A stretch of 64,000 bases of DNA. Source: Escherichia phage vB_EcoM_Lh1B. The notes under the pieces are model-generated. The model saw only the letters and a list, made by a program, of their open reading frames with translations, was not told where the DNA came from and searched no databases. This document shows positions 8,290-64,000 of this stretch, piece by piece. A program made the translations under genes and the position numbers. Where the stretch lies: sequence record OK428535.1, one strand, 5' to 3'. The stretch's first letter is position 1, and each line of letters opens with the position of its first letter.

Positions 8290-10590
8290 ATGAAAGATAC
8301 CCGTATCGCTAGTCTGGACCAGCTGGTTCAGCAGGGCAATGCTCTGGTCGCTGCTGCCAAGGCAGGCTCTTCCGCTAATGACGTATGGCNNNCCGTNGCC
8401 NTTGTCGCCTCTNTACNTNAAAATGCTGCCGGCTTCACCAACCTGCGTGACACTGCTCAGCAGCACTACGAAGCTGTAAACCCTGGCAAAACCATGAGCC
8501 ACGCTGCCCAGGTTGCTTCTGCGATGATTCTGGCTGCTGCCGGTCACGAAGACGACTTCATGACCCGTGTTGCTGCCGAGAGCGCGAAGCCGGAATACGC
8601 CAGCTATATGCCGATCGCTATTTCTGGTGCAGCATCTCTGGCTGCTGACTACGGTAAAACTCCGCTGGTCGCAACCGAATACTACACCAACAAAGACCTG
8701 GACAAAAACCTGGGTCTGACCTGGACGCTGAACGTGCGTGCTCTGGAAACTCAATCCAAGTTTGCAGAAACCCTGTTCCCGACCATCACTGTGGACACCA
8801 ACGACGTCGGCATCACCGTTCGTACCAAAGTTACTACTGTAACTCGTGGTATCCTGAACGCCCTGCTGACCAAAGACGTGGTTGAAGACAACCGTCAGCC
8901 GCTGCATAACGCGCTGTCTAACCACAAAGTCCTGCAGGACGATGCTATCCGTATCGTACCTTACGTGATGGAAACCGGTGAGAACGCGAAGTTCTTCGTA
9001 TCCGAAGACATCATCGAAAACGAAAACGTTCAGCTGGGTCGTGTGCCGGCGTATCCGACCAACTACCTGNGCTTCTCTGAGCGTCGTCTGAACCTGTTCC
9101 AGCTGTCTGCCCATCCGGGTATCGTGCAGGAAGGTTACGATGAAACCGACGAAATCGCACCGGGTGCAGCGCTGGGNAGCCTGCTGCTGTCTGTGCGTAA
9201 GCCGACCGAAGAAGCGAAAGATGGCGCGCTGATCAAACTGAACGTACGCGACATGCAGTTCGCTACCTTCCAGCGTCCTCCTGAAGGCGATGGCCGTGAG
9301 CTGGTCCTGCAGTTCCGTCGCACTGTGTTCTCCCTGAACGCCAAGTCTCTGGACTGGAAAGGTGCTGAAATCCCGGCACTGGCCGCTCTGGCACAGAACG
9401 ATTACACCATTCGTTATTCCATGAACATCAGCATGTCTCTGTTCACCAACGGTCAGTTCTCTGGTCGTGTTGACGTGACTGCACCGTCTCTGGAAATCGA
9501 AGGTCTGTACGATGCAACTGGTACTGCTGTTGATATCGAAAGCGGCACCGGCAAAGTCATCATCGACAACCTGAAACTGGAGCTGCTGGGCTGGCGCTTC
9601 GACGGTACTCGTACCAACGAGAACCGGAGAACCCAGGGCCTTCTGCTCGACCCGATTTGGGAACAAGAGAACTACAAACTGCAGTACGGTTCTCCGATCA
9701 TGACCAAATCTCCGGTTGGCGTTGAATACGACGACACCGAACGTCTGGACGACCTCGTTTCTGCGGTTAACATCCGTAACGAAATGCTGGCTATCACTCA
9801 GACTCTGTCTTACACCGAAGCGGTTAAGAACGCAGCTGCGTCCATGATCACTCCGTGGGACAAACCTGCTATCCGCGGCCTGGGCCGTCACTGGGTTGCT
9901 CCGTGGTACAGCGAAAGCGACTACGAAGTGGACAAAGTGATCCAGTCTCTGGATACCAAAGATGCGCTCATCAACGCCCGTCAGGGTCTGGTACAGCGTA
10001 TCGGCGACCAGGTAACTCGTGCTATCCAGGATTCTCGTTTCATGCCGGCTCTGCGCCTGCTGACTGCGGACCCGAACGCACTGCCGAAAGTTGTTATCGC
10101 AACTGACGAACCGACTGCTGCAATGCTGCTGCTGGTTCAGGGTGACCAGCGTCTGCTGGGCGATCGCTACGAGTACGAAGTTATCACCACCAACGATGAC
10201 CGCTGGCGTGTGAAGAACGAAGCTGACGGCAGCTGGACTCGCCGCCTGCAGTGGGTTCTGAAAGTTCCAACCGCTGATGACGGTTCTTACTGTGTTCTGA
10301 ACTGGGGTAACCACTTCTGGTCTCCGATCATGGTAACCAACATCAACATCCAGCGTAACGGCGCTACCAGCAAAGAGCTGGCAGTACAGCCTCGTAACGC
10401 GCACATCTGCCACTGCCCGATCACTGGTCTGATCTGGATTAAAGGTATCACCAAGTTCGTGGAAGAGAAACTGGCGTTCAACGTCACTACTACTTCCAAC
10501 GGTACTGGCGGTACTAATGGCGGTAATGCGGGTGATGTTGGCGGCGGCGCTACCCAGCCAGGGACGGGNGGTGATGGCGCTGGCGGCTAA
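8290..10590 (+). CDS. putative major capsid protein (766 aa), highly expressed structural protein
   Basis: Very strong optimal-codon bias leaving a 715-aa antisense shadow ORF; size fits the ~750-aa capsid proteins of phiKZ-like phages; product call from context only. Confidence 0.45.
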   Translation: MKDTRIASLDQLVQQGNALVAAAKAGSSANDVWXXXAXVASXXXNAAGFTNLRDTAQQHYEAVNPGKTMSHAAQVASAMILAAAGHEDDFMTRVAAESAKPEYASYMPIAISGAASLAADYGKTPLVATEYYTNKDLDKNLGLTWTLNVRALETQSKFAETLFPTITVDTNDVGITVRTKVTTVTRGILNALLTKDVVEDNRQPLHNALSNHKVLQDDAIRIVPYVMETGENAKFFVSEDIIENENVQLGRVPAYPTNYLXFSERRLNLFQLSAHPGIVQEGYDETDEIAPGAALXSLLLSVRKPTEEAKDGALIKLNVRDMQFATFQRPPEGDGRELVLQFRRTVFSLNAKSLDWKGAEIPALAALAQNDYTIRYSMNISMSLFTNGQFSGRVDVTAPSLEIEGLYDATGTAVDIESGTGKVIIDNLKLELLGWRFDGTRTNENRRTQGLLLDPIWEQENYKLQYGSPIMTKSPVGVEYDDTERLDDLVSAVNIRNEMLAITQTLSYTEAVKNAAASMITPWDKPAIRGLGRHWVAPWYSESDYEVDKVIQSLDTKDALINARQGLVQRIGDQVTRAIQDSRFMPALRLLTADPNALPKVVIATDEPTAAMLLLVQGDQRLLGDRYEYEVITTNDDRWRVKNEADGSWTRRLQWVLKVPTADDGSYCVLNWGNHFWSPIMVTNINIQRNGATSKELAVQPRNAHICHCPITGLIWIKGITKFVEEKLAFNVTTTSNGTGGTNGGNAGDVGGGATQPGTXGDGAGG

Positions 10591-21097: not shown

Positions 21098-21625
21098 ATG
21101 GGATACCGTATAGATTTATCAAAAACCCCGAAACAGATTCTGGTTGAGAGAATCAATTACGTTTTTAAGTTATCGTATAGTGAAAATAACTACGAGTTTA
21201 ACCCACGNGGGGTGTGGCCGCNAACCNAAGNAGNGNGNCGCGNTAANGGTGTGGAGTNTAAAGTTGCGGNGCGCTTTGTAAATGGGGTACACGGCACTCA
21301 AGAGTTTTACCTGACTCGTGCGGACTTAAACAAGTTACTTAAAGACGTAACGGTTGAAGTCCCGAAGGGTGCGGCAGAATGGAGCCATGAATTAGTTCCG
21401 TATATTGTCGATGAGCTGGGTCTCCAGCTTGACACCTACGATATCATGGTTGAACCGATTACCCCAGAAATGGAATCGTATGAGGCGCGTTTAATCCCGC
21501 ACCATCTATCTTTCAAAGGCACGATTGCGATTACTTTTGTTGACCCAACTCCCCGTAAGCTGGCGCAGCTGGTAACTAAACGGGCACTCGACGGGTTTCG
21601 CCCAGGAGAATTTTTAAATGGCTAA
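21098..21625 (+). CDS. hypothetical protein (175 aa)
   Basis: ORF with Ns; overlaps the next start by 8 nt. Confidence 0.5.
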   Translation: MGYRIDLSKTPKQILVERINYVFKLSYSENNYEFNPXGVWPXTXXXXRXXGVEXKVAXRFVNGVHGTQEFYLTRADLNKLLKDVTVEVPKGAAEWSHELVPYIVDELGLQLDTYDIMVEPITPEMESYEARLIPHHLSFKGTIAITFVDPTPRKLAQLVTKRALDGFRPGEFLNG

Positions 21626-43992: not shown

Positions 43993-44033
43993 AGGCTACC
44001 ACACGATCATATGTGTGGTAGCTTATTTTTTTG
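43993..44033 (+). terminator. rho-independent terminator
   Basis: GCTACCACAC...GTGTGGTAGC hairpin followed by TTATTTTTTTG. Confidence 0.65.
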
Positions 44034-44048
44034 TTTCTGGAGGCGTTA

Positions 44049-44588
44049 ATGGCAGACCGCTATCAGCCCGACCTAACACTCTCGTCGAAAGCGCTTGTCG
44101 TGGCGCTTATCAATCATGACAATAATCTGTCACTTACTGATAAAGAGATTGTGATTAGGGATATTGATGCGAACGCTTCACCAGACATCATCCCGAAGAA
44201 CACACAGGCAAGCGTGGCCAAAGCACGTAAGCCAAATGGGAAAACCGTGACAGTCTATTATGACCGGTTAAGTGCGTCTACCGTGCTAGACAGTTTTCAG
44301 CCGCTATTGGTGTCCTTAGACGGAACCGAAACGGACATTCAGCAAATTGCCAGTGTGATTAACGGTTACTGCGGTACAAACTTGTCAGCAGCAGACTTAC
44401 AGTCTGCGCCAATCGTGGTCAGCGACGATTTTACCCTGGTGAATATCACTGGCGATTCCCCAGCATGGCTTGGGACATTTATCGCAACCCTGTTTACCAA
44501 AAATGAGTACGTTCTTTCAACTGACACTGACACGGTGCTGTGTCTGGATGAGAACACTGTGCTCGTACTGACTGACGAGGAAGAGTAA
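44049..44588 (+). CDS. hypothetical protein (179 aa)
   Basis: GGAGG RBS before ATG 44049. Confidence 0.5.
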   Translation: MADRYQPDLTLSSKALVVALINHDNNLSLTDKEIVIRDIDANASPDIIPKNTQASVAKARKPNGKTVTVYYDRLSASTVLDSFQPLLVSLDGTETDIQQIASVINGYCGTNLSAADLQSAPIVVSDDFTLVNITGDSPAWLGTFIATLFTKNEYVLSTDTDTVLCLDENTVLVLTDEEE

Positions 44589-52532: not shown

Positions 52533-52605
52533 AAGGCGTTGAAGGACACTCTACTCCACATCAACTAGGATGACGCTTATCCCAAGGGTAGCGAATAAAG
52601 CAGCA

Positions 52606-52642
52606 CCCTACTCCCGAAGGAGTAGGGTTTCTTCTTTTTTGT
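52606..52642 (+). terminator. rho-independent terminator
   Basis: CCCTACTCC-CGAA-GGAGTAGGG followed by TTTCTTCTTTTTTG. Confidence 0.7.
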
Positions 52643-52738: not shown

Positions 52739-53185
52739 ATGTACATTCTGAATAACGAACTTACTAAGTACGCTAGCAAAAACCCGANTATGATTTNTTT
52801 NCTAATCGTGATGGCGGCCAACAAACAAGACCCTAGCGAATTCACTACTGAGGTCTTCGAAGAGATTATCGCTAACGCCAAAGAAGCCACGTTCCAGACC
52901 ACAGNGCCTACTCGCGACGAGTTCCCCCTAGGTGAAGCCGGCGATGTAATGTTTAACGACATGGTTGCTTCGTACTACATCAATAGACGTGGTATGGAAA
53001 TCGAATACGATGAACTTCCTACTAGCAGCTTTGCTGAAATGATTCGTGATTATCGTCGTCAAGTTGTCTCTGACGATATCGTAAAGAAATACATGGCACA
53101 AATCAGCCCATTCAGTCTTGAATTCGAAAACCGCGCGGTTGCCTTAGCAACACATCGCCTGCGTTTAGAAAAAGAAGTACACTAA
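52739..53185 (+). CDS. hypothetical protein (148 aa)
   Basis: Driven by conserved leader and AAGGAG RBS. Confidence 0.55.
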   Translation: MYILNNELTKYASKNPXMIXXLIVMAANKQDPSEFTTEVFEEIIANAKEATFQTTXPTRDEFPLGEAGDVMFNDMVASYYINRRGMEIEYDELPTSSFAEMIRDYRRQVVSDDIVKKYMAQISPFSLEFENRAVALATHRLRLEKEVH

Positions 53186-53246
53186 TAATAACCCGGCGGG
53201 CAAAGTCCCGCCAATCAACCTGCAATCTACAAAAAAGGAATATCCC

Positions 53247-53465
53247 ATGCGCAACCTCTTCTCCAAATCTGAAATCAAACCTGTTGTTGAAACCGCAGCC
53301 AAACGTAAACCTGACANGNNTGANCTGNNGCTGAAAANGTNTGNAGCAGAAGCCAAAGCGTTNCNGNAAACAATGAAAGACGGNGATAAAATGATTGACA
53401 ATGTTGAAGTAACCTACGGTGTTAAAGACCGCCCAAAGAATAACGGCCTCGTGTGGGTCTGTTAA
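53247..53465 (+). CDS. hypothetical protein (72 aa; N-rich)
   Basis: AAGGAA RBS; many Ns. Confidence 0.35.
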   Translation: MRNLFSKSEIKPVVETAAKRKPDXXXLXLKXXXAEAKAXXXTMKDXDKMIDNVEVTYGVKDRPKNNGLVWVC

Positions 53466-53643
53466 TCGACGATTGAGGATAAAGTCATGAAGAACAAAAA
53501 GCTTCGGCTCCCCTTCTTTTTTTGTTTCCTTTTCTTTTTTGTTTGCTCTTGTTCGGATTCTGGTACGCACTACGCTTTTAATATGCTGGCAGGGGGTCTA
53601 AAAATCTTACGACCTCAATAATCCCTTAACTCGAGTTAACGCG

Positions 53644-54441
53644 ATGTCTTTTACTTCAAAACAGAATCTGCTAAAACTCATCAACGAAGAGAATAAGATA
53701 AGCCCACCGCTTACCTTTGACGATGTTGATATCGGACTGCCGGAGGTTGTGTCAGTAGACGGTCGTGATTCGGAGGTAGTCCTTACCTCGAAGATGCGCG
53801 GTGATGAAGGTACGCAAGTGATTGTGGACTACCATCGTCGTCCATTAGAGGACTACCTTAAAGGCGATGTTGCCTTTGGAGACGAGGACGTGCAAACCAC
53901 GCACGACTTACTCGCGGCGATTAACGAGCGTTTTAATCTGTCTATCTTACCTGAGGATATCGAAGATAACCCCATTGATGGACAGACGCACACAGTCGTT
54001 GCTGTTGAAACTTCCCACGAGTGGCGAAGTCAAGCGGTCATCGAGCTGAAACCTGCTACACCTCTGGCAGAAGTAGTAACCAATACAGAGTTGAGCGGTC
54101 TTCTGTACCCGGATCACCAGGACATCCAGTTGGGTCAGGCGTATATCTATTCGCGTGACATCGATTGTAGCCACATCTCTCGTTTCCTGAGCCTCTTAGC
54201 GGTCGGTATCGAGGTAGATGACACGGCGTTGGCAATCGAACTCAACAAATGTGTTCCTGAGATTTGGGTAGCTGAAGATACCCCATCCCCGTATAACCTG
54301 CGTGGTGCCACTGTCGTATTCGACGGCGTACCTGCAGACTTGCCGGGAGCAAATACGGCGTTCGCGAAAGTCGTGTCAGTGCAACTGACCGATAAATGTA
54401 CGAACTTCCAGGGCAGCCTCAACCTACACTTTAACAACTAG
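53644..54441 (+). CDS. tandem-array paralogue P1 (265 aa), putative tail-fibre/receptor-binding-like family
   Basis: Shares N-terminal module and C-terminal L-x-L-H-F/Y-N motif with P2-P8; no obvious RBS. Confidence 0.6.
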   Translation: MSFTSKQNLLKLINEENKISPPLTFDDVDIGLPEVVSVDGRDSEVVLTSKMRGDEGTQVIVDYHRRPLEDYLKGDVAFGDEDVQTTHDLLAAINERFNLSILPEDIEDNPIDGQTHTVVAVETSHEWRSQAVIELKPATPLAEVVTNTELSGLLYPDHQDIQLGQAYIYSRDIDCSHISRFLSLLAVGIEVDDTALAIELNKCVPEIWVAEDTPSPYNLRGATVVFDGVPADLPGANTAFAKVVSVQLTDKCTNFQGSLNLHFNN

Positions 54442-54451
54442 GAGGGTATAG

Positions 54452-55294
54452 ATGTCTATTTACGATAAGCCCTCGAAAGAGATGTTGTTAGATGCTATTA
54501 ACCGACAGAACGGATTAACGGCCAATCCACTCACATGGGAGCAGGTTGCAACTGGCTTCCCTGAGTCTGTCCAAACGCCTGGCGCTGACCGGAATACGCG
54601 TGTGCTCTTATACGGGTTGAACGGCAAGGGCTACAAAGGCAACGTTACGCTCGAATACGACCGTATCGAAATGGAAATTCTGTTCAGGAACGTAATACCG
54701 GTAGTCGTTGCCGACCCGGTAAATAAACTCTCTGAGTTGTTGCCGTTTCTGAATGCGAAATACGGCTTGTCTTTAGTTGCCGACGATATCGTTGACCAGT
54801 CAGTAAAAGATTTGGGAGAAAGCTGGTTAATCGATGTGACTATTAAGCCTGGTTGCTTGGCCTGGCAAGGTGGTTTCCGTTTACGCTTTGCGAAGTTCTT
54901 CCCGAACTTGGCGGATGTGGTGACGGATGTTGACCTCAGCGCAATTATCGCGCCGTTCGTGGTTGCTAGTAAACCACAGGCTGAGTATGTGGCGTATGGT
55001 TACGATTGGACTGAACTGCAAAAACAGTTCACTACCGATTGGGCTTACAACCGCGCAATCACCGCGGCGGATGTTGAATTGCTTAACGAAGTGGTGCCAT
55101 TAAAGTTTGCATATGTGACGGGGGCGACTGCGCAACCTGAACAAATTGCGCTTCAAGGTGCACGATATATGGGGATAACTTCAGTCACACCGAACGATAG
55201 TTACAACCCCGATTATCAGCGTGTGGCGATTATCAAGCTAGCTGCGGACAGCAACTACGCCGGTAATCTCATCCTTCACTATCTCCCGATATAA
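54452..55294 (+). CDS. tandem-array paralogue P2 (280 aa)
   Basis: N-terminal LLDAINRQN...ADRNT...G..G..YDR module; GGAGG RBS. Confidence 0.7.
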   Translation: MSIYDKPSKEMLLDAINRQNGLTANPLTWEQVATGFPESVQTPGADRNTRVLLYGLNGKGYKGNVTLEYDRIEMEILFRNVIPVVVADPVNKLSELLPFLNAKYGLSLVADDIVDQSVKDLGESWLIDVTIKPGCLAWQGGFRLRFAKFFPNLADVVTDVDLSAIIAPFVVASKPQAEYVAYGYDWTELQKQFTTDWAYNRAITAADVELLNEVVPLKFAYVTGATAQPEQIALQGARYMGITSVTPNDSYNPDYQRVAIIKLAADSNYAGNLILHYLPI

Positions 55295-55304
55295 GGATTT
55301 TGAC

Positions 55305-56150
55305 ATGCCACTTTTAGCCACTGCTGAAAAGATTATTATCGCGGAGGTTAACGTCGAAAACAATCTCGATTTAAAAGTCGAAGATGTGGTTTTCGGTGTC
55401 CCTGCGATTCCGACGTCTGACGAAGACCTGGCAAAAGCCAATGGTCATAACGCGATGGTGCGCATTCAGGCATTGGCCACCGCTAATGCTATCGGTGCCA
55501 CTACCGTGTATTACGATCGTGTTGACTTCGCAGACATGTTTACCGACCCAGACGGGATTCAACCTTTACGTGTTCCTGCACGTCTCGATGCTGTTTACCA
55601 GATGCATGACGTGGTCGGGTTAATTAACCAGTATTACGGTCTCAGTCTTAAACCTGCAGATGTGGTGAATACCGAAATCGACAGGAAGACATGGCGTGTG
55701 GATCTGATTGCCACGCCCACTTCTTTAGGTTGGATAGGGCAACAACAGGTACAGCTGTTACCAGGCGATGCGTTGCTTCCTGCAAACTTCGAACCCTTAA
55801 CAGTAACACCTTACGAGTATCCGTATTTTAACATCAAGGTCGGTCAAGGTGCAGTTTATTCGTATCCCTGGCGCTTTGATAATTTCGCGGAGGAATTTCA
55901 ACGACTAGGTGCTGCGATAACCGCAGAACGTCTGGCACAGATTCTCAAAACGGTCACCGGTGATAACTGGACAACGTACCGTAACCCAATCGACTTTAAC
56001 CTTCGTGAAGCCGTCGTCGTCTATAACGGGCGTAACAAAGCGGAATTACCAACCAACCCAGCAGTCGACAACGTGCTGATTGTGGAGCTGTCGTTGTACT
56101 GTCTGAATTTTGGCGGGCGTTTGTATTTGCACTACAACGACCCTGATTAA
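55305..56150 (+). CDS. tandem-array paralogue P3 (281 aa)
   Basis: Divergent family member (YYDRVDF, C-terminal LHYNDPD); AAGGA RBS. Confidence 0.65.
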   Translation: MPLLATAEKIIIAEVNVENNLDLKVEDVVFGVPAIPTSDEDLAKANGHNAMVRIQALATANAIGATTVYYDRVDFADMFTDPDGIQPLRVPARLDAVYQMHDVVGLINQYYGLSLKPADVVNTEIDRKTWRVDLIATPTSLGWIGQQQVQLLPGDALLPANFEPLTVTPYEYPYFNIKVGQGAVYSYPWRFDNFAEEFQRLGAAITAERLAQILKTVTGDNWTTYRNPIDFNLREAVVVYNGRNKAELPTNPAVDNVLIVELSLYCLNFGGRLYLHYNDPD

Positions 56151-56171
56151 TCCTGAGTAAAGGAAGTAAGA

Positions 56172-57083
56172 ATGAAACCTTTAAACAAAACGTCCGATCA
56201 GCTGGTTCTGGATTTTATTAATGAGAAAAACCCAGACGCAGAACTGGAACTTTCTAAAATAACGCTCGGCACACCGACCCCTATTATCGATGAAGGTGCC
56301 GATCGCAATACCAGCATGACCCTGACTGCGAAAAAGAACTCCGGGTACATCGGTACTCAGGACGTGACTTATAATCGCCTGGAAGGCGGTGCGCTGTTCC
56401 GNAACGTAACGGCATACCTCGACGTTAAACTGCCGAAAACCACCACAGACCTGCTGACGACCCTGAACACCCAATACGGATTGAAGCTGACCGAAGACGA
56501 TATCGTTCCGGCGGCTATTCCGGAAAATACCAACCCGCCGCTGACTAACCCGAACGATCCGGACCCAGCACCGGTTGACCATGTCATTACCTTCAAAGAA
56601 GACTGCTACGCTTATCTGGGCAGCATCCCGGTTAAAATCGGTGCTAAGCCTCAGGTTGGTGAACGTCTGAGTCTGGTGGTAACACAAACCAAGCTCGACG
56701 GCCTGGTTTACCCAGATGGTCCAAGCGAAGCGAAGGGTCAGGGCTACATCTACTCTTACGGTGTAGACTGCACAGCAATCGCAGCATTCCTGAAAGTACA
56801 GGCGAAAGGTGTTATCGCTGGCGACTCTGCATTCCCGGTTGAGCTGAATAAAGTTGTGCCGGAACTGTGGGTTGCATCTGATGAGCCTGCGGATTATAAC
56901 CTGAAAGGTGCTAACGTGTTGTACGTTGGTTCTACTACTGACGATGGCACTGCTTCAGGCGACGATCCTAAGAAACCGGTTGAAGGTGCAAACACTGCTT
57001 ACAACCAGGTTCTGCTGCTGCAGCTGGATGACACTCTGTGCACCAACTTCCAGGGCGTCATGTACCTGCACTTTAATGCCTAA
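56172..57083 (+). CDS. tandem-array paralogue P4 (303 aa), codon-optimised
   Basis: INEKNP...ADRNT...YNRLEGGALF and C-terminal YLHFNA; strong optimal-codon bias; terminator downstream. Confidence 0.7.
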   Translation: MKPLNKTSDQLVLDFINEKNPDAELELSKITLGTPTPIIDEGADRNTSMTLTAKKNSGYIGTQDVTYNRLEGGALFXNVTAYLDVKLPKTTTDLLTTLNTQYGLKLTEDDIVPAAIPENTNPPLTNPNDPDPAPVDHVITFKEDCYAYLGSIPVKIGAKPQVGERLSLVVTQTKLDGLVYPDGPSEAKGQGYIYSYGVDCTAIAAFLKVQAKGVIAGDSAFPVELNKVVPELWVASDEPADYNLKGANVLYVGSTTDDGTASGDDPKKPVEGANTAYNQVLLLQLDDTLCTNFQGVMYLHFNA

Positions 57084-57095
57084 TTAGGCCTCGCT

Positions 57096-57137
57096 GGGAG
57101 GAGGAAATCCTCCTCCTGGCTACTCCTTTCTTTTTTG
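57096..57137 (+). terminator. rho-independent terminator inside the paralogue array
   Basis: GGAGGAGG-AAAT-CCTCCTCC followed by T-rich run. Confidence 0.6.
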
Positions 57138-57152
57138 GCCGAGGAGGCTATT

Positions 57153-57992
57153 ATGGCTTTATATAGTCTGTCTCAGCGACAATATCTGTACGATGCGATT
57201 AATGCCGAAAACCCGGATGCTGTTCTACCGATGGGTTTAGACAATGCTATCATCGGTACGCCGAAAGCAATCACACCGACAGCAAGCGGTGCCAATACTG
57301 AGATTATCATTCGTGGTCGTCAAGGTCGTGGCTATATCGGTCCTCAGACGTTCCGTTATAAGCGCTTGTCGCTGAACGACTTATTTAAGAACATGACACC
57401 TCAGGTAACTGCACCGAATGCCTACGGTTGGTTGAACGTGGAGTCGAAACGTACTGCGTTTGCGCAGAACCTGAACGGTCGTTATGGATTAAACCTGGTT
57501 GCAGACGATATCCCAGAACAATACGTTTATCTGAACGTAAACAACACGATGCGTATTAACGCTAGCTGTATCCAATACACTGGCAGCATCACCTTTATGT
57601 CTATCCGGGGTAAGAATAGTCTCGAAGACCTCGTGGTAAACGACATCTTGTCGGCTTTGAACCACCCTGCAGCAGCAAGCACTGGTAAGAAATACATGGG
57701 CTTCTTGACGTACGGGGAAGACTTTACTGATGAAGTGCAGGTTATGGCCTCGTTTAAGAACGGGCGAATGGACGTAGGAAGTAACTTTGATTTGGGTTAC
57801 ACGTCCAATCTGATGGCCACATTGGTCGCACGTGGGGTACCGTCGTTTGATCCGACGAACTGCACAATTACCCGCTACAAAACGAGTGAGTTGGCGACCG
57901 CCAATAAAGCGTACGATAACGTATTGCTGATTACCGGCATTCAGAACGACCCGAAAGTAATCGGCGAGTGTATGTTGCACTACAACAACTAG
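57153..57992 (+). CDS. tandem-array paralogue P5 (279 aa)
   Basis: GAGGAGG RBS before ATG 57153; C-terminal MLHYNN. Confidence 0.7.
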   Translation: MALYSLSQRQYLYDAINAENPDAVLPMGLDNAIIGTPKAITPTASGANTEIIIRGRQGRGYIGPQTFRYKRLSLNDLFKNMTPQVTAPNAYGWLNVESKRTAFAQNLNGRYGLNLVADDIPEQYVYLNVNNTMRINASCIQYTGSITFMSIRGKNSLEDLVVNDILSALNHPAAASTGKKYMGFLTYGEDFTDEVQVMASFKNGRMDVGSNFDLGYTSNLMATLVARGVPSFDPTNCTITRYKTSELATANKAYDNVLLITGIQNDPKVIGECMLHYNN

Positions 57993-58002
57993 GAATTAGC
58001 GA

Positions 58003-58890
58003 ATGGCTATTTATCAACCTTCTAAAGACGTCCTGTTGGCAGCAGTGAACGCACAGAACTCGCTTGCTGTTAAGATGACTGACATCATCTGGTCCTCGCC
58101 AAAGGACATCCGTGGTACGGAGAAGGAAACGCTGACTAACCGTAACACGCAAATTAAAATTACGGCAGATGGGGTAACGGGCTCTACCTGGTCGGGTAAG
58201 AAAAATGTCTTCTACAACCGCATGAAGGTCGAAGACTTGTTAGTGTTGATTGGTGACACGTTGGCGATCGGCCCATCCAACGAAACCTTGTATGCGGCCA
58301 TTCCTGGACTGAACCAACGTTACGGTTTTGTTCTGGAAGAAGCTGACCTGCAGGACGCAGATATCGAATGGAACGGTGATAAGACCGAAGGTACTGTGCG
58401 TGTTGTTGCACATCCAGAGTCTATCGGTTGGGTTGGACAGGCGACATTTAAAGTCGTGAAAGGCGATGAGTCGTTAGTCTCTGCAGTCACCACTAACGTC
58501 CTGACCGGTCTGAAATACCCGAACGGTCAGATGGGTTCCGAAACCGTTACTGCGGTCATTGCAGAGGTTTATTCCTACCCGTACAACTTCACTAAGTACC
58601 GAGATGCTCTGCTGGCATACAAGCCGGGNATTCTGTCTGGNCAGCCGTTAACGGATATGGTTAACCTGCTGAAAGATATCACGGGTACTGCATGGGTAGC
58701 GACCACTTCCGCTTCCTACGGTTTGGCGGGCGCGGAGGTTATCAGCGTTGGTCTGAATGACCCTGTTGCAATGCCGACAAACGCGAAGTACAAGTATGCG
58801 CTGGTGTTGAAACTGCCTGTTACCTGTACCACCATCGTCGGAACGTTGTATCTCCAGTTCAACGATCTGGACGATCCAAGCGAGGTATAA
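58003..58890 (+). CDS. tandem-array paralogue P6 (295 aa)
   Basis: LLAAVNAQN...NRNT...YNRMKVEDLL; C-terminal YLQFND. Confidence 0.7.
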   Translation: MAIYQPSKDVLLAAVNAQNSLAVKMTDIIWSSPKDIRGTEKETLTNRNTQIKITADGVTGSTWSGKKNVFYNRMKVEDLLVLIGDTLAIGPSNETLYAAIPGLNQRYGFVLEEADLQDADIEWNGDKTEGTVRVVAHPESIGWVGQATFKVVKGDESLVSAVTTNVLTGLKYPNGQMGSETVTAVIAEVYSYPYNFTKYRDALLAYKPXILSXQPLTDMVNLLKDITGTAWVATTSASYGLAGAEVISVGLNDPVAMPTNAKYKYALVLKLPVTCTTIVGTLYLQFNDLDDPSEV

Positions 58891-58893
58891 TTG

Positions 58894-59721
58894 ATGATCA
58901 ACTATGCTAAGCCGTCAAACGAGTTGGTCTTTGACCTCATTAACCGGGATAACCCAAACCTACCTATTAAAGCGTCGCCGGCAAACTGCTACGTGGAGAA
59001 AGTGACGCAGGTTCCCGTTAATGCAGCTTCCAACAACCGCAATACGTCGGCACGCTTGCGCGGTATTCAGGGTTCCGGATTTCGAGACGCAATCACCGTT
59101 TACTACGACCGTGTGAACTTAGCGCGGTTATTGCCGTGGGGTCCTTCTGTCCAGGCGCAGTTCGTCACGTTTGACGCGCCCAACCTCCACTCAGCCTTTT
59201 CGGTGCTCTTGGATACTTACGGAGTAAACTTCTCCGCAATCGATATCCAAAACTACTCACTGTTTGGTGCCAATACCCCAAATTACACCAATACACAGAC
59301 CATTGCAGCGCTATCGACATCTCCGGCTTATATCGGTTCTGCGACGTTGCGTTATAACCGTGGTTTACCGGTACTAGACACTTCGGTGAAATCAGATGTC
59401 TTGAATGCGATTCAAGAGCCTATTTCACCGTCTCTCGGTAAGAAGTGTATTGATTTGTTGACGTACGGTATTGACTTTACCGCGTATAAAAACCTACTGA
59501 CAGTAGATGCTTCTGGCCTACCGCAGTGGGCTGGTTTGCGTAAGGTGTTGGATGACCTGGGTATTCCGAACTACGCGGGGCCACTGAACAGTAACACCGT
59601 TCAGGATGTGCCGACTTCCACCGCTCAGTTCGCTAACAAATCGTACGACCGCGTGGTTATCCAAACGGGCATCGATGAGGAAGGCGTGAAAGGCGTGGCG
59701 TACTACCACTATAACAGCTAA
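58894..59721 (+). CDS. tandem-array paralogue P7 (275 aa)
   Basis: DLINRDNP...NNRNT...YYDRVNLARLL; C-terminal YYHYNS; terminator downstream. Confidence 0.7.
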   Translation: MINYAKPSNELVFDLINRDNPNLPIKASPANCYVEKVTQVPVNAASNNRNTSARLRGIQGSGFRDAITVYYDRVNLARLLPWGPSVQAQFVTFDAPNLHSAFSVLLDTYGVNFSAIDIQNYSLFGANTPNYTNTQTIAALSTSPAYIGSATLRYNRGLPVLDTSVKSDVLNAIQEPISPSLGKKCIDLLTYGIDFTAYKNLLTVDASGLPQWAGLRKVLDDLGIPNYAGPLNSNTVQDVPTSTAQFANKSYDRVVIQTGIDEEGVKGVAYYHYNS

Positions 59722-59725
59722 GTGT

Positions 59726-59750
59726 AGGGGCTCTTCGGAGCCCCATCTTT
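59726..59750 (+). terminator. rho-independent terminator (UUCG loop)
   Basis: GGGGCTC-TTCG-GAGCCCC followed by ATCTTTTGG. Confidence 0.55.
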
Positions 59751-59768
59751 TGGCGATGCGGAGTCCCT

Positions 59769-61181
59769 ATGCTATTTTACTCGAAGGAGTCGGCACTGCT
59801 TGTATACGACCAAGTCAATCGGGATAATCCTGATTTAGTTGTTAAGCTGACGCCGGCTATCGCTGCTTTAACCAGCGGCCCAACTTCAGTTACGTTAAAC
59901 CAGCGTAACACCAAAGCTGTTTTCACCGGGTATCCAGGGACAGGTGTACAAGGTAATGTTACCGTGTACTACGACCGGATTAACCTGGCCACTTTATTTA
60001 ATTTTGTGCCGACTGTGGCTATCAAAGATACAGTCTTAACGGTACGAGACGCGCTACCTGCAATAAACGACGCATTGGGGCTTACATTAGTTGCTTCTGA
60101 TTTGCAGTCACCTGACGCAAGTTTACCTAAACCGAGCGCTTCGCCGCAGACGTTGAAATTAAATATCTCAGGTAATTGCCCTGCGTTTACAGGCAGCTTA
60201 ACGATACGTTATACCGTCCCGAGTGGTGCAATTTACCCCGATTCTGGACCTGGCCCTAAAACGTTGCTGCAAGGTAACACTATCGCGGGTTATTTCGGAA
60301 CAACCACAATTGCAGAGTTGTTTACACACTCTCAACTTCTTAATGCCACTATATCGGCCGGTGCGTTACCACCGGTACATTCTGGTGCCGAAGGTTGGTA
60401 CAAGTTCTTTTACCAGGGTAGGGTTATTTACCTCCCGATTAGTCCTGTCGCTAGCTCCATCTCCTGGAATACGTTATATACAAACGGACTCGTTTACGGA
60501 ACAGACGATAATGGTAAATACCCTGCGGCGACGCCCGTTAACCAGGGACGCATCATTAGCTTTACAGGCGCAGACAACAAAAGGTTTTACTTCCGCGTTC
60601 GTCTACCTAGTGCCGGGAAAGACCCATACGTCAGCGGCACCCCAACTGCCGCTGAGTTAGCAGGTAGTGAGTTTGAGATGTTCAACTTTCTGTATAATGG
60701 AACGTGGGACAAACCGATTAACAGTTACTGGACGCTGTTCTGTTTATTGAAAGATACACTGAACACCAACGTCGCCAATCATCGCATGGCGACGTTGTCT
60801 GGAGCCAGTTGGACAAACTTAGGAAAATCATCGAGCGCAGGCAACTACTACTGGTTCCCGGTGCTAGAGTTGGTGGATAAGTCCACAGTTACCTTGGGTT
60901 TAGAAGATATCCATGGTGCGGTAGATTACAGTCTCCAACCGNNCAGNGTGTCCGCAGAAAANNCNTTTAGNCTCANNCCNTTGGTNCTCGGTAATCCAGA
61001 TACTACCGATTTCGAACCGGTAGTTGTTACTTCAGAAAACAGTTTCGCACNGCATCCGCCTGCTTTAATGCTGCCGAAGACAGTCGACTTCCAACCCATT
61101 GCGGCTACCGCTGAAATGTATACGCCACCCGACAAGACATCGTTAACGTCACTTAACGGTGAACTGGACGGCTTTAAGTAG
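59769..61181 (+). CDS. tandem-array paralogue P8 (470 aa): N-terminal family module plus GPGPK-motif distal domain
   Basis: YYDRINLATLF module, then YPDSGPGPKTLLQGN...GYFG domain shared with P10 and P11; Ns near 3' end. Confidence 0.7.
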   Translation: MLFYSKESALLVYDQVNRDNPDLVVKLTPAIAALTSGPTSVTLNQRNTKAVFTGYPGTGVQGNVTVYYDRINLATLFNFVPTVAIKDTVLTVRDALPAINDALGLTLVASDLQSPDASLPKPSASPQTLKLNISGNCPAFTGSLTIRYTVPSGAIYPDSGPGPKTLLQGNTIAGYFGTTTIAELFTHSQLLNATISAGALPPVHSGAEGWYKFFYQGRVIYLPISPVASSISWNTLYTNGLVYGTDDNGKYPAATPVNQGRIISFTGADNKRFYFRVRLPSAGKDPYVSGTPTAAELAGSEFEMFNFLYNGTWDKPINSYWTLFCLLKDTLNTNVANHRMATLSGASWTNLGKSSSAGNYYWFPVLELVDKSTVTLGLEDIHGAVDYSLQPXXVSAEXXFXLXXLXLGNPDTTDFEPVVVTSENSFAXHPPALMLPKTVDFQPIAATAEMYTPPDKTSLTSLNGELDGFK

Positions 61182-61192
61182 AGGTATCATCC

Positions 61193-62191
61193 ATGTCTTT
61201 TACTTTGCGTTGGAAAAATCCAAACGTAATCTCTACGGTAGTAAAAATCTACCGTGACGTTAAAGATATCACACCGAGCGCTTTGCCTGAACCGATTGCA
61301 ACGCTCTCAAATGGCGAGACAGAATGGCGTGATACCACCGCCGCACCAGGCGCAACCTATTATTACCTTCTGACGGTAACCGCCAACGGTAAAACAGTGG
61401 CATCGTCTAGCCAGAAATACACCATTGAGATAAAGCGTGGGATTGGCCCAATGACTATTCTAAACGGTAACGACCGTTTAGGGTTTATGGGTGCGGTTCC
61501 TTACGACGAACAATGGCTTCCGTCGCAAATGCCACCTGCATTTTTGGCGATGTTCCCTAATCTATTAACCGATCGTGTGGCGTTGTATAAATTTACCCGA
61601 AACGGGAAAATCTATTACATGCTATCTAACACGTCGCAGTTCCCGAATACGCCTGTGGACTGGGCTTCCCTCTATCAAGCTGGTTTAGTCTATGGTACGG
61701 GCGATGCTGGTCCAGAGAACGGCCATGGAACGCTACCGGCCACTCCACAAGACGCTAAGATAGTCCACAAAGGGGATACGTACATTATGCGTCTTCCTCG
61801 CGGCCTGACGACGTCTAGCGAGCCTCCTGCGTATCCTTTCGTAGCTGACTATAATGGGAAAACCCATGATGAAATCGCTTCTCTAACCAACCCGTGTGAG
61901 TATAACGATTTACTTTACACGATGGTTAACGAGGTGCCGAAGAAACAGCGTTGGGCTAACTGGGCAACGTACAGTTATAATTATCTGGGGCAGGGTACTT
62001 TGGGAACCTCGGCAACGTATTTCGGCGGTGGTGTTCTCTGTATGGAACACGACACCACGGAAGACCGTGTGCTCCATCGTGGTATTTTTAACAATGCCGG
62101 TGGAACACCCGTATCCGCGATTCAGCGTATAAACTATTTATCACCCACCACGAAAGGGCGTTACTACCCTATCTTTGAACTGGTTGAGTAA
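61193..62191 (+). CDS. tandem-array protein P9 (332 aa) with N-terminal FN3-like domain
   Basis: LRWKNP...IYRD...TYYYLLTVTANGK fits a fibronectin-III-like pattern; C-terminal YYPIFELVE parallels P8 WFPVLELVD. Confidence 0.65.
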   Translation: MSFTLRWKNPNVISTVVKIYRDVKDITPSALPEPIATLSNGETEWRDTTAAPGATYYYLLTVTANGKTVASSSQKYTIEIKRGIGPMTILNGNDRLGFMGAVPYDEQWLPSQMPPAFLAMFPNLLTDRVALYKFTRNGKIYYMLSNTSQFPNTPVDWASLYQAGLVYGTGDAGPENGHGTLPATPQDAKIVHKGDTYIMRLPRGLTTSSEPPAYPFVADYNGKTHDEIASLTNPCEYNDLLYTMVNEVPKKQRWANWATYSYNYLGQGTLGTSATYFGGGVLCMEHDTTEDRVLHRGIFNNAGGTPVSAIQRINYLSPTTKGRYYPIFELVE

Positions 62192-62200
62192 GGGGCAGTC

Positions 62201-63124
62201 ATGACTATACGGTTAAGCTGGCCGTCTCAAGCCAGTAAAGGTCTTACCGCGATTGAAATCTATCGCAAAGAAGGCTGGAACGCAACTATAGACGTTTACA
62301 ATCCAGGCACGCCCCACGCAACTTTATCTGGCAACGCGGTAGAGTTTGTAGATAATATCGATACCCTGACGAAGAATACAACCTATCGTTACTGGGTAGC
62401 TGCTGTAAAAGACAGTGAACGACTTATCGGCAATCCGATTACGCAAGGATTCTATCCGGACACCGGGCCGGGTCCGCAAACTATTTTGCGTGGTGACTGG
62501 GCTTCAGGTTATTTCGGTACAGTACCGAATACAGAGTTCTTTAATACAGCCGAGTTAAAACTCATGTTAACTGCGCAGCAGGGAAACATGTTTATCTACG
62601 ACCCTCAGGAATGGCACAAGTTTATTTTCCGTGGGCGAATTGTGTTCTTCCCAGCGTCGATGCATTCGAAAACCAACTCGGTACAAATGGCGTATCAGTA
62701 CGGTATGATGTACGGGACCGATGATGTCGGAAGTATTGTTCCGCTGGGAGCCACGGCCACCAAACAAGATTGTAAGGTCACGAAGGATGGTCGTACGTAC
62801 CGTATCCGGTTACCTTACGCAGTCCCGTACGATGCGACTCTCTCAGGACAGGATTACAACAACGGCGAATGGCGAAACACAATGGGCCGTTTGTATCCTG
62901 TCAGTGCACAGTTCCCAGCCCTTGGTCTTGGTGCCATCGATTCAATACCGGCGCAAGGTTCAACTTCCCAGCCTAACGAAACAGGTGCTGCTGCATTAGC
63001 CCCTTTATGGAGCAACAACATTTTCGCTTATGCGTACGGTTATGCGCCTATAGGGATTAGTAACACCTCAGGTGTCGGGAACTCGACCACGATGTTCTTT
63101 GCTTTTGAATTAGTCTTACCGTAA
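62201..63124 (+). CDS. tandem-array protein P10 (307 aa): FN3-like domain plus GPGPQ-motif domain
   Basis: LSWPS...IYRKEGW...TYRYWVAAV then FYPDTGPGPQTILRGDWASGYFG. Confidence 0.65.
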   Translation: MTIRLSWPSQASKGLTAIEIYRKEGWNATIDVYNPGTPHATLSGNAVEFVDNIDTLTKNTTYRYWVAAVKDSERLIGNPITQGFYPDTGPGPQTILRGDWASGYFGTVPNTEFFNTAELKLMLTAQQGNMFIYDPQEWHKFIFRGRIVFFPASMHSKTNSVQMAYQYGMMYGTDDVGSIVPLGATATKQDCKVTKDGRTYRIRLPYAVPYDATLSGQDYNNGEWRNTMGRLYPVSAQFPALGLGAIDSIPAQGSTSQPNETGAAALAPLWSNNIFAYAYGYAPIGISNTSGVGNSTTMFFAFELVLP

Positions 63125-63137
63125 CGGAGTAAAAGCC

Positions 63138-64000
63138 ATGGGGTTGTATACAGAACCTTCAATGGAACTGCTCTGCCAACAAATTGTGCGTGACAATCCC
63201 GGTTTAGCAGGAAAAATCACCGCTGACTCCATTGGGGTCAGGGGNGTTCCTGTTGCGAAAAACGTTAACGGACGAAACACACAGATTACGTTGGTAGGAA
63301 AACCCGGTAAAGGATTTGCTGGGGAAATAACGGTATATTACGACCGGTTGAATCTGGCCAGTCTATTTAAGTCTGGCCCAAATATGGTGAGTATTCCACG
63401 TAGCGNACAAACCCATGCGGAAGNGTTACCGGCGTTCAATGAATTGAACGGGTTNAACTTAACCGCGAGTGATATCACCAGTCCAAACGTTGCATTAATG
63501 AAATACGCTACGCCGGAAACTGTAACTCTGACGGCGCACGCTAACTCCTTGTGTTATACCGGGTCATGCAAGATGACCTATGTTTACGAACCGATTGCGA
63601 TGTATCCGAAGTCGGGTCCTGGGCCAAAAGGATTAATGGCTGGTAATGAGTTATACGGATTCTTTGGGCTGGTAAGCGCGGAAGAGTTATTCACATCTGA
63701 TGAAATGGTGTATGCCCTCTATAACGGCACCACCTGGCCTAACCGCTACGCTATCAAGTGGCTCAAATTCTTTCTGAATGGGGNGGTAGTGTTTGTTCCG
63801 ACCCGTGCGNTTTGCAACGTTACCTGGGCAGACCTGTACAACAAGGGTGCAATATTTGATTCCGGAGACGCAGGACCTCGCCCGAAGTCGACTTACACAC
63901 CTGTCGATGTTGAACAGTTGAAATACATGGTAAAACGGGATGATGAAGGAACGCATTATTTCAGAATGTCTATCCCGTATTACACCGAGAACGCCGCCGC
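63138..64000 (+). CDS. tandem-array paralogue P11 (partial, runs off window end): N-terminal module plus GPGPK-motif domain
   Basis: IVRDNPGL...GRNT...YYDRLNLASLF then YPKSGPGPKGLMAGN...GFFG; no stop within window. Confidence 0.65.
   Translation, partial: MGLYTEPSMELLCQQIVRDNPGLAGKITADSIGVRXVPVAKNVNGRNTQITLVGKPGKGFAGEITVYYDRLNLASLFKSGPNMVSIPRSXQTHAEXLPAFNELNGXNLTASDITSPNVALMKYATPETVTLTAHANSLCYTGSCKMTYVYEPIAMYPKSGPGPKGLMAGNELYGFFGLVSAEELFTSDEMVYALYNGTTWPNRYAIKWLKFFLNGXVVFVPTRAXCNVTWADLYNKGAIFDSGDAGPRPKSTYTPVDVEQLKYMVKRDDEGTHYFRMSIPYYTENAA

Follow-up and report, generated by a model that had tools for sequence, protein, structure and literature searches.

Why should one gene in a tandem run of related phage genes use its synonymous codons so differently from its neighbours? 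The question is raised by P4, the fourth member of an array designated P1-P11 in the stretch of Escherichia phage vB_EcoM_Lh1B analysed here (record OK428535.1; 64,000 nucleotides, hereafter the window). The original prediction had singled out P4 as the codon-usage outlier of the array and offered two readings, that it is the abundantly expressed default member or that it was recently acquired from a codon-optimised source. Positions 53000-64000 align with Salmonella phage SPN3US and its relatives at 100% megablast coverage and ~97.5% identity, and on this sequence match the window is assigned to an SPN3US-like jumbo phage, the SPN3US group (Seoulvirus) consisting of 240-kb jumbo phages. By the SPN3US annotation, P1-P11 correspond to gp138-gp148 and P4 (56172-57083, plus strand, 303 aa) to gp141 (SPN3US_0141), with 98% amino acid identity (tblastn) and an identical position in the array; the two are the same gene in close relatives, with nothing of substance different between them. 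Upstream of the array, the window differs from SPN3US in a 428-bp deletion that takes out gp137.

The array is largely, though not entirely, a set of paralogues. P4 matches the Pfam family DUF7941 (PF25613) with 285 bits and E = 8e-85, its residues 1-303 aligning to profile positions 1-276 above the gathering score, and all of P1-P7 (53644-59721, plus strand; gp138-gp144) are full-length DUF7941 proteins. P8 and P11 match the family over the N-terminal 150 aa only, and the profile search found no DUF7941 match in P9 or P10, so that the description of P1-P11 as a paralogue array holds for P1-P7, partly for P8 and P11, and is slightly too generous for P9 and P10. P4 shares 24-38% identity with the other full-length members (38% with P1) and carries two insertions found in none of the other members, one Pro/Asn-rich (residues ~120-136) and one Asp/Gly-rich (~262-278).

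Codon usage was scored as the codon adaptation index (CAI) for 74 non-overlapping ORFs of the window, using as reference 29 genes of E. coli K-12 (ribosomal proteins, tufA, fusA and rpoA; 5059 codons). E. coli and Salmonella share optimal codons, and the reference used here is that of E. coli, not Salmonella. With a CAI of 0.631, P4 ranks second of the 74 ORFs, behind the major capsid gene gp75 (8290-10590; 0.761), whereas the rest of the array falls between 0.33 and 0.52 (P1 0.42, P2 0.36, P3 0.38, P5 0.44, P6 0.515, P7 0.39, and P8-P11 0.33-0.37). As controls, cryptic E. coli gsp genes scored 0.23-0.39 and the reference genes themselves 0.54-0.84. The comparison of P1-P11 with the capsid gene that had been proposed for this claim clearly distinguishes P4 from P3 and P5, the bootstrap 95% interval of P4 (0.573-0.688) being free of overlap with those of P3 (0.331-0.434) and P5 (0.378-0.501). 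When synonymous codons were resampled from phage-wide usage while keeping each protein's own amino acid sequence, P4 was expected to reach only 0.406 +/- 0.023, which places the observed value at z = +9.6; P6 follows at z = +4.7, and the remaining members stay within |z| <= 2.6. P4 is therefore an outlier within its array, as predicted. The accompanying statement that it relies heavily on optimal codons is borne out for CTG (26/33 in P4, 30% phage-wide) and CCG (13/22, 37%), which are strongly enriched together with GTT (14/24, 31%), ACC/ACT and TAC; for the other codons named at the time, namely GGT (12/23, 44%), AAA (14/20, 61%) and GAA (11/14, 62%), the enrichment is marginal, barely exceeding phage usage.

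Neither base composition nor the choice of reference accounts for this result. The GC content of P4 is 0.51 and its GC3 is 0.55, within the range of its neighbours (GC3 0.48-0.58), and base composition is not the cause of the bias. In a reference-free PCA of RSCU across 183 SPN3US genes, the first axis holds 19.5% of the variance, correlates at 0.95 with CAI, is loaded most strongly by CTG, CGT, CCG, TCT and GGT, and places gp141 eighth of the 183. A reference internal to the phage (gp75, 53, 54, 255 and 256; capsid, gp53/54, tube and sheath) gives 0.618 for gp141 and 0.33-0.51 for its neighbours, and the codon result is independent of the E. coli reference. Across SPN3US, gp141 ranks ninth of 245 genes by CAI. 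The bias is also visible where the paralogues encode the same amino acid: at residues identical between two members, the better codon lies in P4 rather than in P1 at a ratio of 40:22, rather than in P2 at 36:15, and rather than in P3 at 41:16, while P4 and P6 are level (24:30).

A gene that stands apart from its neighbours invites the explanation that it came from elsewhere, i.e., that P4 was recently gained by horizontal transfer or recombination and inherited its bias from a codon-optimised donor. Besides the contrast itself, the scarcity of synonymous differences from SPN3US (2/302) might suggest a sweep through P4; P5, however, shows the same scarcity (2/279), and both counts are small. 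The wider comparison among phages points the other way. A P4 homologue was found by tblastn in 94 phage records, and in the six further phages compared (ChrisDB, CR5, Kwan, pEa_SNUABM_54, phiEaH2 and pSal-SNUABM-04, representing at least five genera) an orthologue with 44-83% amino acid identity occupies the same place in the array. In 6/6 of these phages the orthologue has the highest CAI of its array (0.60-0.72, versus 0.32-0.58 for the other members) and a hairpin lies in the gap behind it, and the P6 orthologues are usually second within their own arrays. The ribosome-binding context is likewise retained: the start context AAAGGAAG...ATGAAACC is kept in the orthologues of 5/6 relatives ('aaaggaag/aaaggaa' followed by ATGAAACC). 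Because the bias and the hairpin are shared by syntenic orthologues, both are old, conserved properties of P4. Its GC and GC3 are not atypical, it is paralogous to its neighbours over the full length, and the signature expected of horizontal transfer (atypical composition, with patchy occurrence or absence at the syntenic site) was not found, orthologues being present in all relatives examined. Recent acquisition, the second half of the original prediction, is thus contradicted by the comparative data and is highly improbable as a source of the bias.

A constraint of another kind could in principle be imposed by a second gene on the opposite strand. The original prediction had noted that the codon usage of P4 leaves a 168-aa antisense shadow ORF, and this ORF does exist (56181-56687, minus strand, TTG start); it is the longest antisense ORF of the array and, were it a real overlapping gene, it could constrain the codons of P4. 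Its frame is the antisense one aligned with the codons of P4, in which stops arise only from the sense codons TTA, CTA and TCA. P4 contains two such codons where ~10 would be expected from phage usage (given 33 Leu and 12 Ser), leaving an open run of 257 codons, and the long antisense frame is there because these rare codons are avoided. The same cause operates elsewhere: the capsid gene has no TTA, CTA or TCA codon at all and its antisense frame is open across all 767 codons. Among the P4 orthologues, each with one or two such codons, the open runs vary from 216 to 305 codons and have different boundaries. The further statement that the neighbours leave no comparable frame proved incorrect, since P5 carries a similar antisense ORF of 163 aa (57489-57980) in an open run of 167 codons. 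Taken together with the TTG start, these observations make a genuine antisense gene the least probable of the explanations considered, and the 168-aa ORF is a by-product of codon avoidance, not a gene.

The remaining possibility from the original prediction, that P4 is the abundantly expressed default member, can be compared with published proteomics of SPN3US. Ali et al. 2017 (PMC5694885) defined 'paralog family B' as gps 83, 138-154, 160/161 and 237, and reported most members at low abundance, gp143 at middle abundance, and gp141 and gp160 at high abundance. In SPN3US virions gp141 reached a spectral count per mass (SC/M) of 9.39 with 94% sequence coverage (PMC5694885 Supplementary Table 1), a measure of incorporation into virions, not of synthesis; the tail sheath, at ~264 copies, reached 8.84, below gp141 (PMC5694885). 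The counterpart of P6, gp143, stands at 3.70, gp138-140 at 1.2-1.3, and most family members at 0.5-2.8 (PMC5694885). The abundance of gp141 within the family had therefore been published already, and the ranking by abundance reported for this family of ~20 paralogues (Ali et al. 2017, PMC5694885; Thomas et al. 2016, PMC5105663) matches the ranking by CAI obtained here. No per-gene codon-adaptation analysis was found in the papers searched.

Across P1-P11, CAI and published SC/M are correlated (Spearman 0.82, p = 0.002), with P6 (58003-58890, plus strand), the gp143 orthologue, holding the second tier in codon adaptation as it does in the published abundance. For the wider correlations, CAI was calculated for all 264 annotated SPN3US CDS. 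Within family B (n=20) the Spearman coefficient is 0.69, and over 86 virion proteins CAI correlates with ln(SC/M) at Pearson 0.63 (p = 7e-11), with a Spearman coefficient of only 0.42. The virion genes with the highest CAI encode the capsid, gp53, gp54, the tail tube, gp141 and the sheath. The relation is nevertheless loose, since gp160 equals gp141 in abundance at a CAI of just 0.50. Among the non-virion genes of SPN3US with top CAI values (gp22, gp252, gp43, gp29 and gp55), the Pfam search gave no match, nor was a PDB match obtained for gp22.

Translational selection on the codons of highly expressed enterobacterial and phage genes is the concept on which the CAI of Sharp & Li is built. P4 resembles the textbook case in every respect considered: the bias runs in the host-optimal direction, scales with abundance, does not depend on GC3 and is conserved among orthologues, and no point of difference was found. 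P4 is thus very probably the high-copy member of the DUF7941 (family B) virion proteins, whose host-optimal codons were driven by selection on translation, in agreement with the prediction of an abundantly expressed default member. P4 would be made in many more copies per virion than its paralogues, and we infer that selection for translational efficiency, acting on a protein required in hundreds of copies, has moved its synonymous sites towards the enterobacterial optimal codons CTG, CCG, GTT, ACC/ACT, TAC and GGT/GGC. Codon bias that tracks expression is textbook knowledge, so the bias of P4 is an ordinary, already explained feature that carries little weight as a discovery.

The same codons could also have been favoured for reasons other than output, e.g., for translational accuracy, for mRNA stability, or to let a polymerising subunit fold or assemble co-translationally, with abundance as a mere correlate. 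The CAI of P4 shows a ramp-like increase, from 0.47 to 0.76, over the length of the gene, gp160 is as abundant with less adapted codons, and DUF7941 proteins are reported to polymerise, all of which would fit such an account. Yet the codons enriched in P4 are enriched in all the other high-copy virion genes whatever the fold of their products (capsid, gp53/54, tube and sheath), and the link between CAI and copy number across the genome offers the simplest explanation. Selection unrelated to output is accordingly unlikely as the main cause, and translational selection on a high-copy protein is the reading followed below.

The arrangement of the genes indicates at which level the difference between P4 and its neighbours is likely to be set. 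Within blocks of the array the intergenic gaps are 3-21 nt (10-21 nt in the P1-P3 region), and the only gaps longer than 21 nt are those after P4 (69 nt) and after P7 (47 nt), both of which bear hairpins; these two gaps cut the array into P1-P4, P5-P7, and P8 onward. P1-P3 lie upstream of P4, apparently on one transcription unit with no room for a promoter, and are nevertheless rare, so transcript level cannot explain the difference and the contrast between P4 and P1-P3 is most likely post-transcriptional. Apart from its codons, P4 possesses a Shine-Dalgarno-like AAGGAAG (56160-56166, plus strand) 5 nt before its ATG, and AAA follows the start codon, a feature shared with the capsid gene; the good Shine-Dalgarno sequence and the AAA codon probably aid its output.

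The gap after P4 contains a hairpin, GCTGGGAGGAGG-AAAT-CCTCCTCCTGGC (57093-57120, plus strand), whose 12-bp GC-rich stem begins 9 nt past the stop codon, with a T-tract, TTTCTTTTTT (57127-57136, plus strand), 6 nt 3' of it. A folding energy of -33.3 kcal/mol was calculated for the region (z = -3.4 versus shuffles), and one of about -23.5 kcal/mol for the 12-bp stem alone. A hairpin occurs at this site in 13/13 related phages. In a 12-phage alignment, 96.4% of stem cells are paired, versus 55-70% when the stem is slid, and at three pairs both partners have changed; in CR5 and pEa_SNUABM_54 the stems at this site are unrelated. The conserved pairing and the compensatory changes show that the hairpin is under selection. 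Two extensions of the structure were considered and rejected, namely an outer helix (GGCC/GGCC) that encloses the T-tract and would mask the Shine-Dalgarno sequence of P5, and a lower stem directly adjoining the T-tract. The folds of the individual sequences disagreed across the 13 phages, so that the main 12-bp hairpin is all that is claimed.

Whether this hairpin is a terminator, as the original prediction held for 57096-57137, is less clear-cut than its conservation. A stable GC-rich stem-loop is present, and a T-rich tract lies 2-9 nt beyond the stem in 12/13 relatives; a U-tract 0-2 nt after the stem, the other feature of intrinsic terminators, was not found at P4, where the spacing is 6 nt. 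The strict terminator scan passed over the P4 hairpin owing to the spacer between stem and T-run. Folding and conservation suggest a terminator-like or 3'-stabilising element. Nor is it the sole such element in the array, as had been supposed. The element after P7, GGGGCTC-TTCG-GAGCCCC followed by ATCTTTTGG (59727-59754, plus strand), is canonical in its likeness to an intrinsic terminator and was recovered by the hairpin plus T-run scan (59727-59744); its U-tract is adjacent to the stem, making it more canonical than that of P4, and a GC-rich hairpin with a T-run immediately next to it is conserved at the P7 site in five relatives (ChrisDB, CR5, Kwan, phiEaH2 and pSal-SNUABM-04). For the element behind P4, we infer that it closes the translationally packed P1-P4 block, most likely by partial intrinsic termination, by shielding the message upstream of it as a 3' hairpin, or by both. 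Protection from the 3' end would favour P4 as the gene nearest the hairpin, and some read-through would be needed, P5-P7 having no obvious space for a promoter. Beyond the hairpin, P5 is preceded by a Shine-Dalgarno sequence, GAGGAGG, and starts at the ATG at 57153 (57141-57155, plus strand) and not at the TTG at 57135 given in the list of open reading frames, in keeping with the GAGGAG motif, invariant in 11/12 aligned phages, and with the length of its counterpart gp142, annotated in SPN3US as 840 nt.

The relation between codon adaptation and copy number was also seen in phage Goslar, for which a recent preprint describes DUF7941 as specific to chimalliviruses (bioRxiv 10.64898/2026.04.21.720040). 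Two Goslar members belong to the most abundant proteins of the virion (gp23 at ~2140 copies and gp22 at ~580), purified gp22 forms filaments for which head-to-tail oligomerisation is proposed, carbohydrate-binding, hydrolase or LRR domains occur in the rarer members, and a baseplate-anchored 'fibre cloud' is proposed for the DUF7941 proteins of this phage (bioRxiv 10.64898/2026.04.21.720040). The CAI values follow the same order, with 0.72 for gp23 and 0.57 for gp22, versus 0.32-0.43 for the minor members gp31, gp33 and gp34, and 0.80 for the capsid gene. Goslar is only distantly related and infects E. coli, the species from which the reference was taken, and it provides an independent replicate of the rule linking CAI to abundance. 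CAI alone thus sorts DUF7941 paralogues correctly by high, middle and low copy number in the SPN3US-like phages and in Goslar, and can nominate the major subunit in the many chimalliviruses not covered by proteomics.

The two systems are alike in more than codon usage. Both have members of the same Pfam family of which one or two are very abundant and many are rare; the rare members in Goslar often bear extra C-terminal domains, as do P8 and P11 here; and the architecture described for Goslar gp22 (N-terminal domain, linker and C-terminal domain) resembles that of the P4 model. That AlphaFold2 model, of moderate confidence (pLDDT 69.7), consists of an N-terminal domain, a low-confidence linker at residues 162-197 and a C-terminal domain. 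Identity between P4 and the Goslar proteins is, however, only ~25%, and P4 could not be matched one-to-one with the abundant gp22 or gp23, its best BLAST matches being gp33 and gp34 instead. It is conceivable, if somewhat short of probable, that a high CAI identifies the subunit forming the stoichiometric 'backbone' of a heteropolymeric DUF7941 filament system, in which P4/gp141 would supply the bulk and P6/gp143 a lesser share, the low-CAI paralogues (e.g., P8 and P11 with their extra C-terminal domains) would act as rare adaptor or tip subunits, and the hairpins after P4 and P7 would separate expression blocks and so contribute to this stoichiometry.

Where such a filament would sit in the virion is a matter on which the published data disagree. 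Tailless gp64-minus particles of SPN3US retain gp141 (326 spectra, versus 420 in the permissive control) and lose the tail protein gp124 (PMC5105663 Table S4), and the SPN3US authors call the family B members head proteins because gp141 is retained in these particles. This association with tailless heads conflicts with the position of DUF7941 proteins at the peripheral baseplate in phiKZ and Goslar. The retention of gp141 does not fit anchoring at the baseplate alone, unless the heads were purified together with free filaments. If gp141 filaments do stay with tailless heads, they would be attached to the head or neck and not to the baseplate, or might merely co-purify, and in both cases this bears on the disagreement between head and baseplate. 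The phiKZ side of the comparison comes from gp127, a protein of the outer peripheral baseplate that provides the sole significant fold match of the P4 model in the PDB (9xqd, entry 9xqd_0; E = 1.9e-6, probability 1.00), with a TM (target) score of 0.67 over the 150-residue N-terminal domain, the only domain resolved in the phiKZ structure. In sequence the two match weakly, at 19% identity, with the C-terminal LHYN motif included, and phiKZ has 2-3 family members where the SPN3US-like phages have ~20.

Within P4 (56172-57083), the high-copy virion protein gene of the array, the codon adaptation index (CAI) against the E. coli highly expressed reference increases steadily from 5' to 3', from 0.47 over the first 60 codons to 0.76 over the last, a ramp-like pattern at the 5' end. 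The neighboring paralogue P5 carries a codon-aligned antisense ORF of 163 aa (57489-57980, minus strand) that almost equals that of P4 in length, despite a CAI of only 0.44 for P5; just five TTA, CTA or TCA codons occur in this gene. High CAI is also found among SPN3US genes for non-virion proteins of unknown function (gp22, gp252, gp43, gp29, and gp55; 0.60-0.73). These values match the level of the capsid and tail genes, and very high expression is therefore predicted for all five from their codon usage. Pfam searches with the five proteins returned no matches, nor did a PDB sequence search with gp22.

The Shine-Dalgarno sequence of P5 (GAGGAGG, 57141-57147), which is unchanged in 11 of 12 phages, is complementary to the 3' arm (CCUCCUCC, 57109-57116) of the hairpin that follows the P4 stop codon. 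Formation of this hairpin could be coupled to translation of P5 through alternative pairing; no alternative helix was consistently conserved among the phages compared.

Upstream of the array, 428 bp of SPN3US, including gp137, are absent from the window, with the junction at 53481/53482 falling between short repeats that are near-identical in SPN3US (GAGTCGTGAA and GAAGTCGTGAA). Proteus phage 7, SEGD1, and EC001 each align to the window as a single piece, and may for this reason share the shorter arrangement that lacks the 428 bp. The deletion adjoins the terminator 5' of P1 (~53495-53530), which in SPN3US consists of GGGAGC-TTCG-GCTCCC and a T-run; in the window the 5' arm reads AAAAAGC, unlike the GGGAGC of SPN3US, and the stem is consequently weakened. 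Farther upstream, a perfect 10-bp palindromic hairpin (ACCCTACTCC-CGAA-GGAGTAGGGT, 52605-52628) was called on both strands by the terminator scan. On the plus strand a T-rich run comes after the stem, on the minus strand a weaker one (GCTGCTTTAT), and the hairpin is likely a terminator that acts more strongly on the plus strand.

Short genes related to DUF7941, the domain of the full-length array paralogues, also lie outside the array (21098-21625 and 44031-44588; orthologues of gp83 and gp122, respectively). The 2017 SPN3US paper (PMC5694885) listed gp122 as only a speculative member of paralog family B; its orthologue in the window matches Pfam DUF7941 with E = 2.6e-18. In the distal part of the array, P9 and P10 (61193-63124) do not match DUF7941, and a phrog_1062 domain is common to both and to the C-terminal half of P8 (59769-61181). 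Two genes of the P8-P10 stretch are annotated as 'glycosyl hydrolase' in MET_P1_082_240 and Proteus phage 7.

N bases occupy 259 positions across the window, scattered in clusters (e.g., 53317-53384, 56402, and the C-terminal part of P8), and have the appearance of polymorphic sites that were masked or left ambiguous. The single N within P4 falls in a cgN codon, which encodes Arg whichever base is present.
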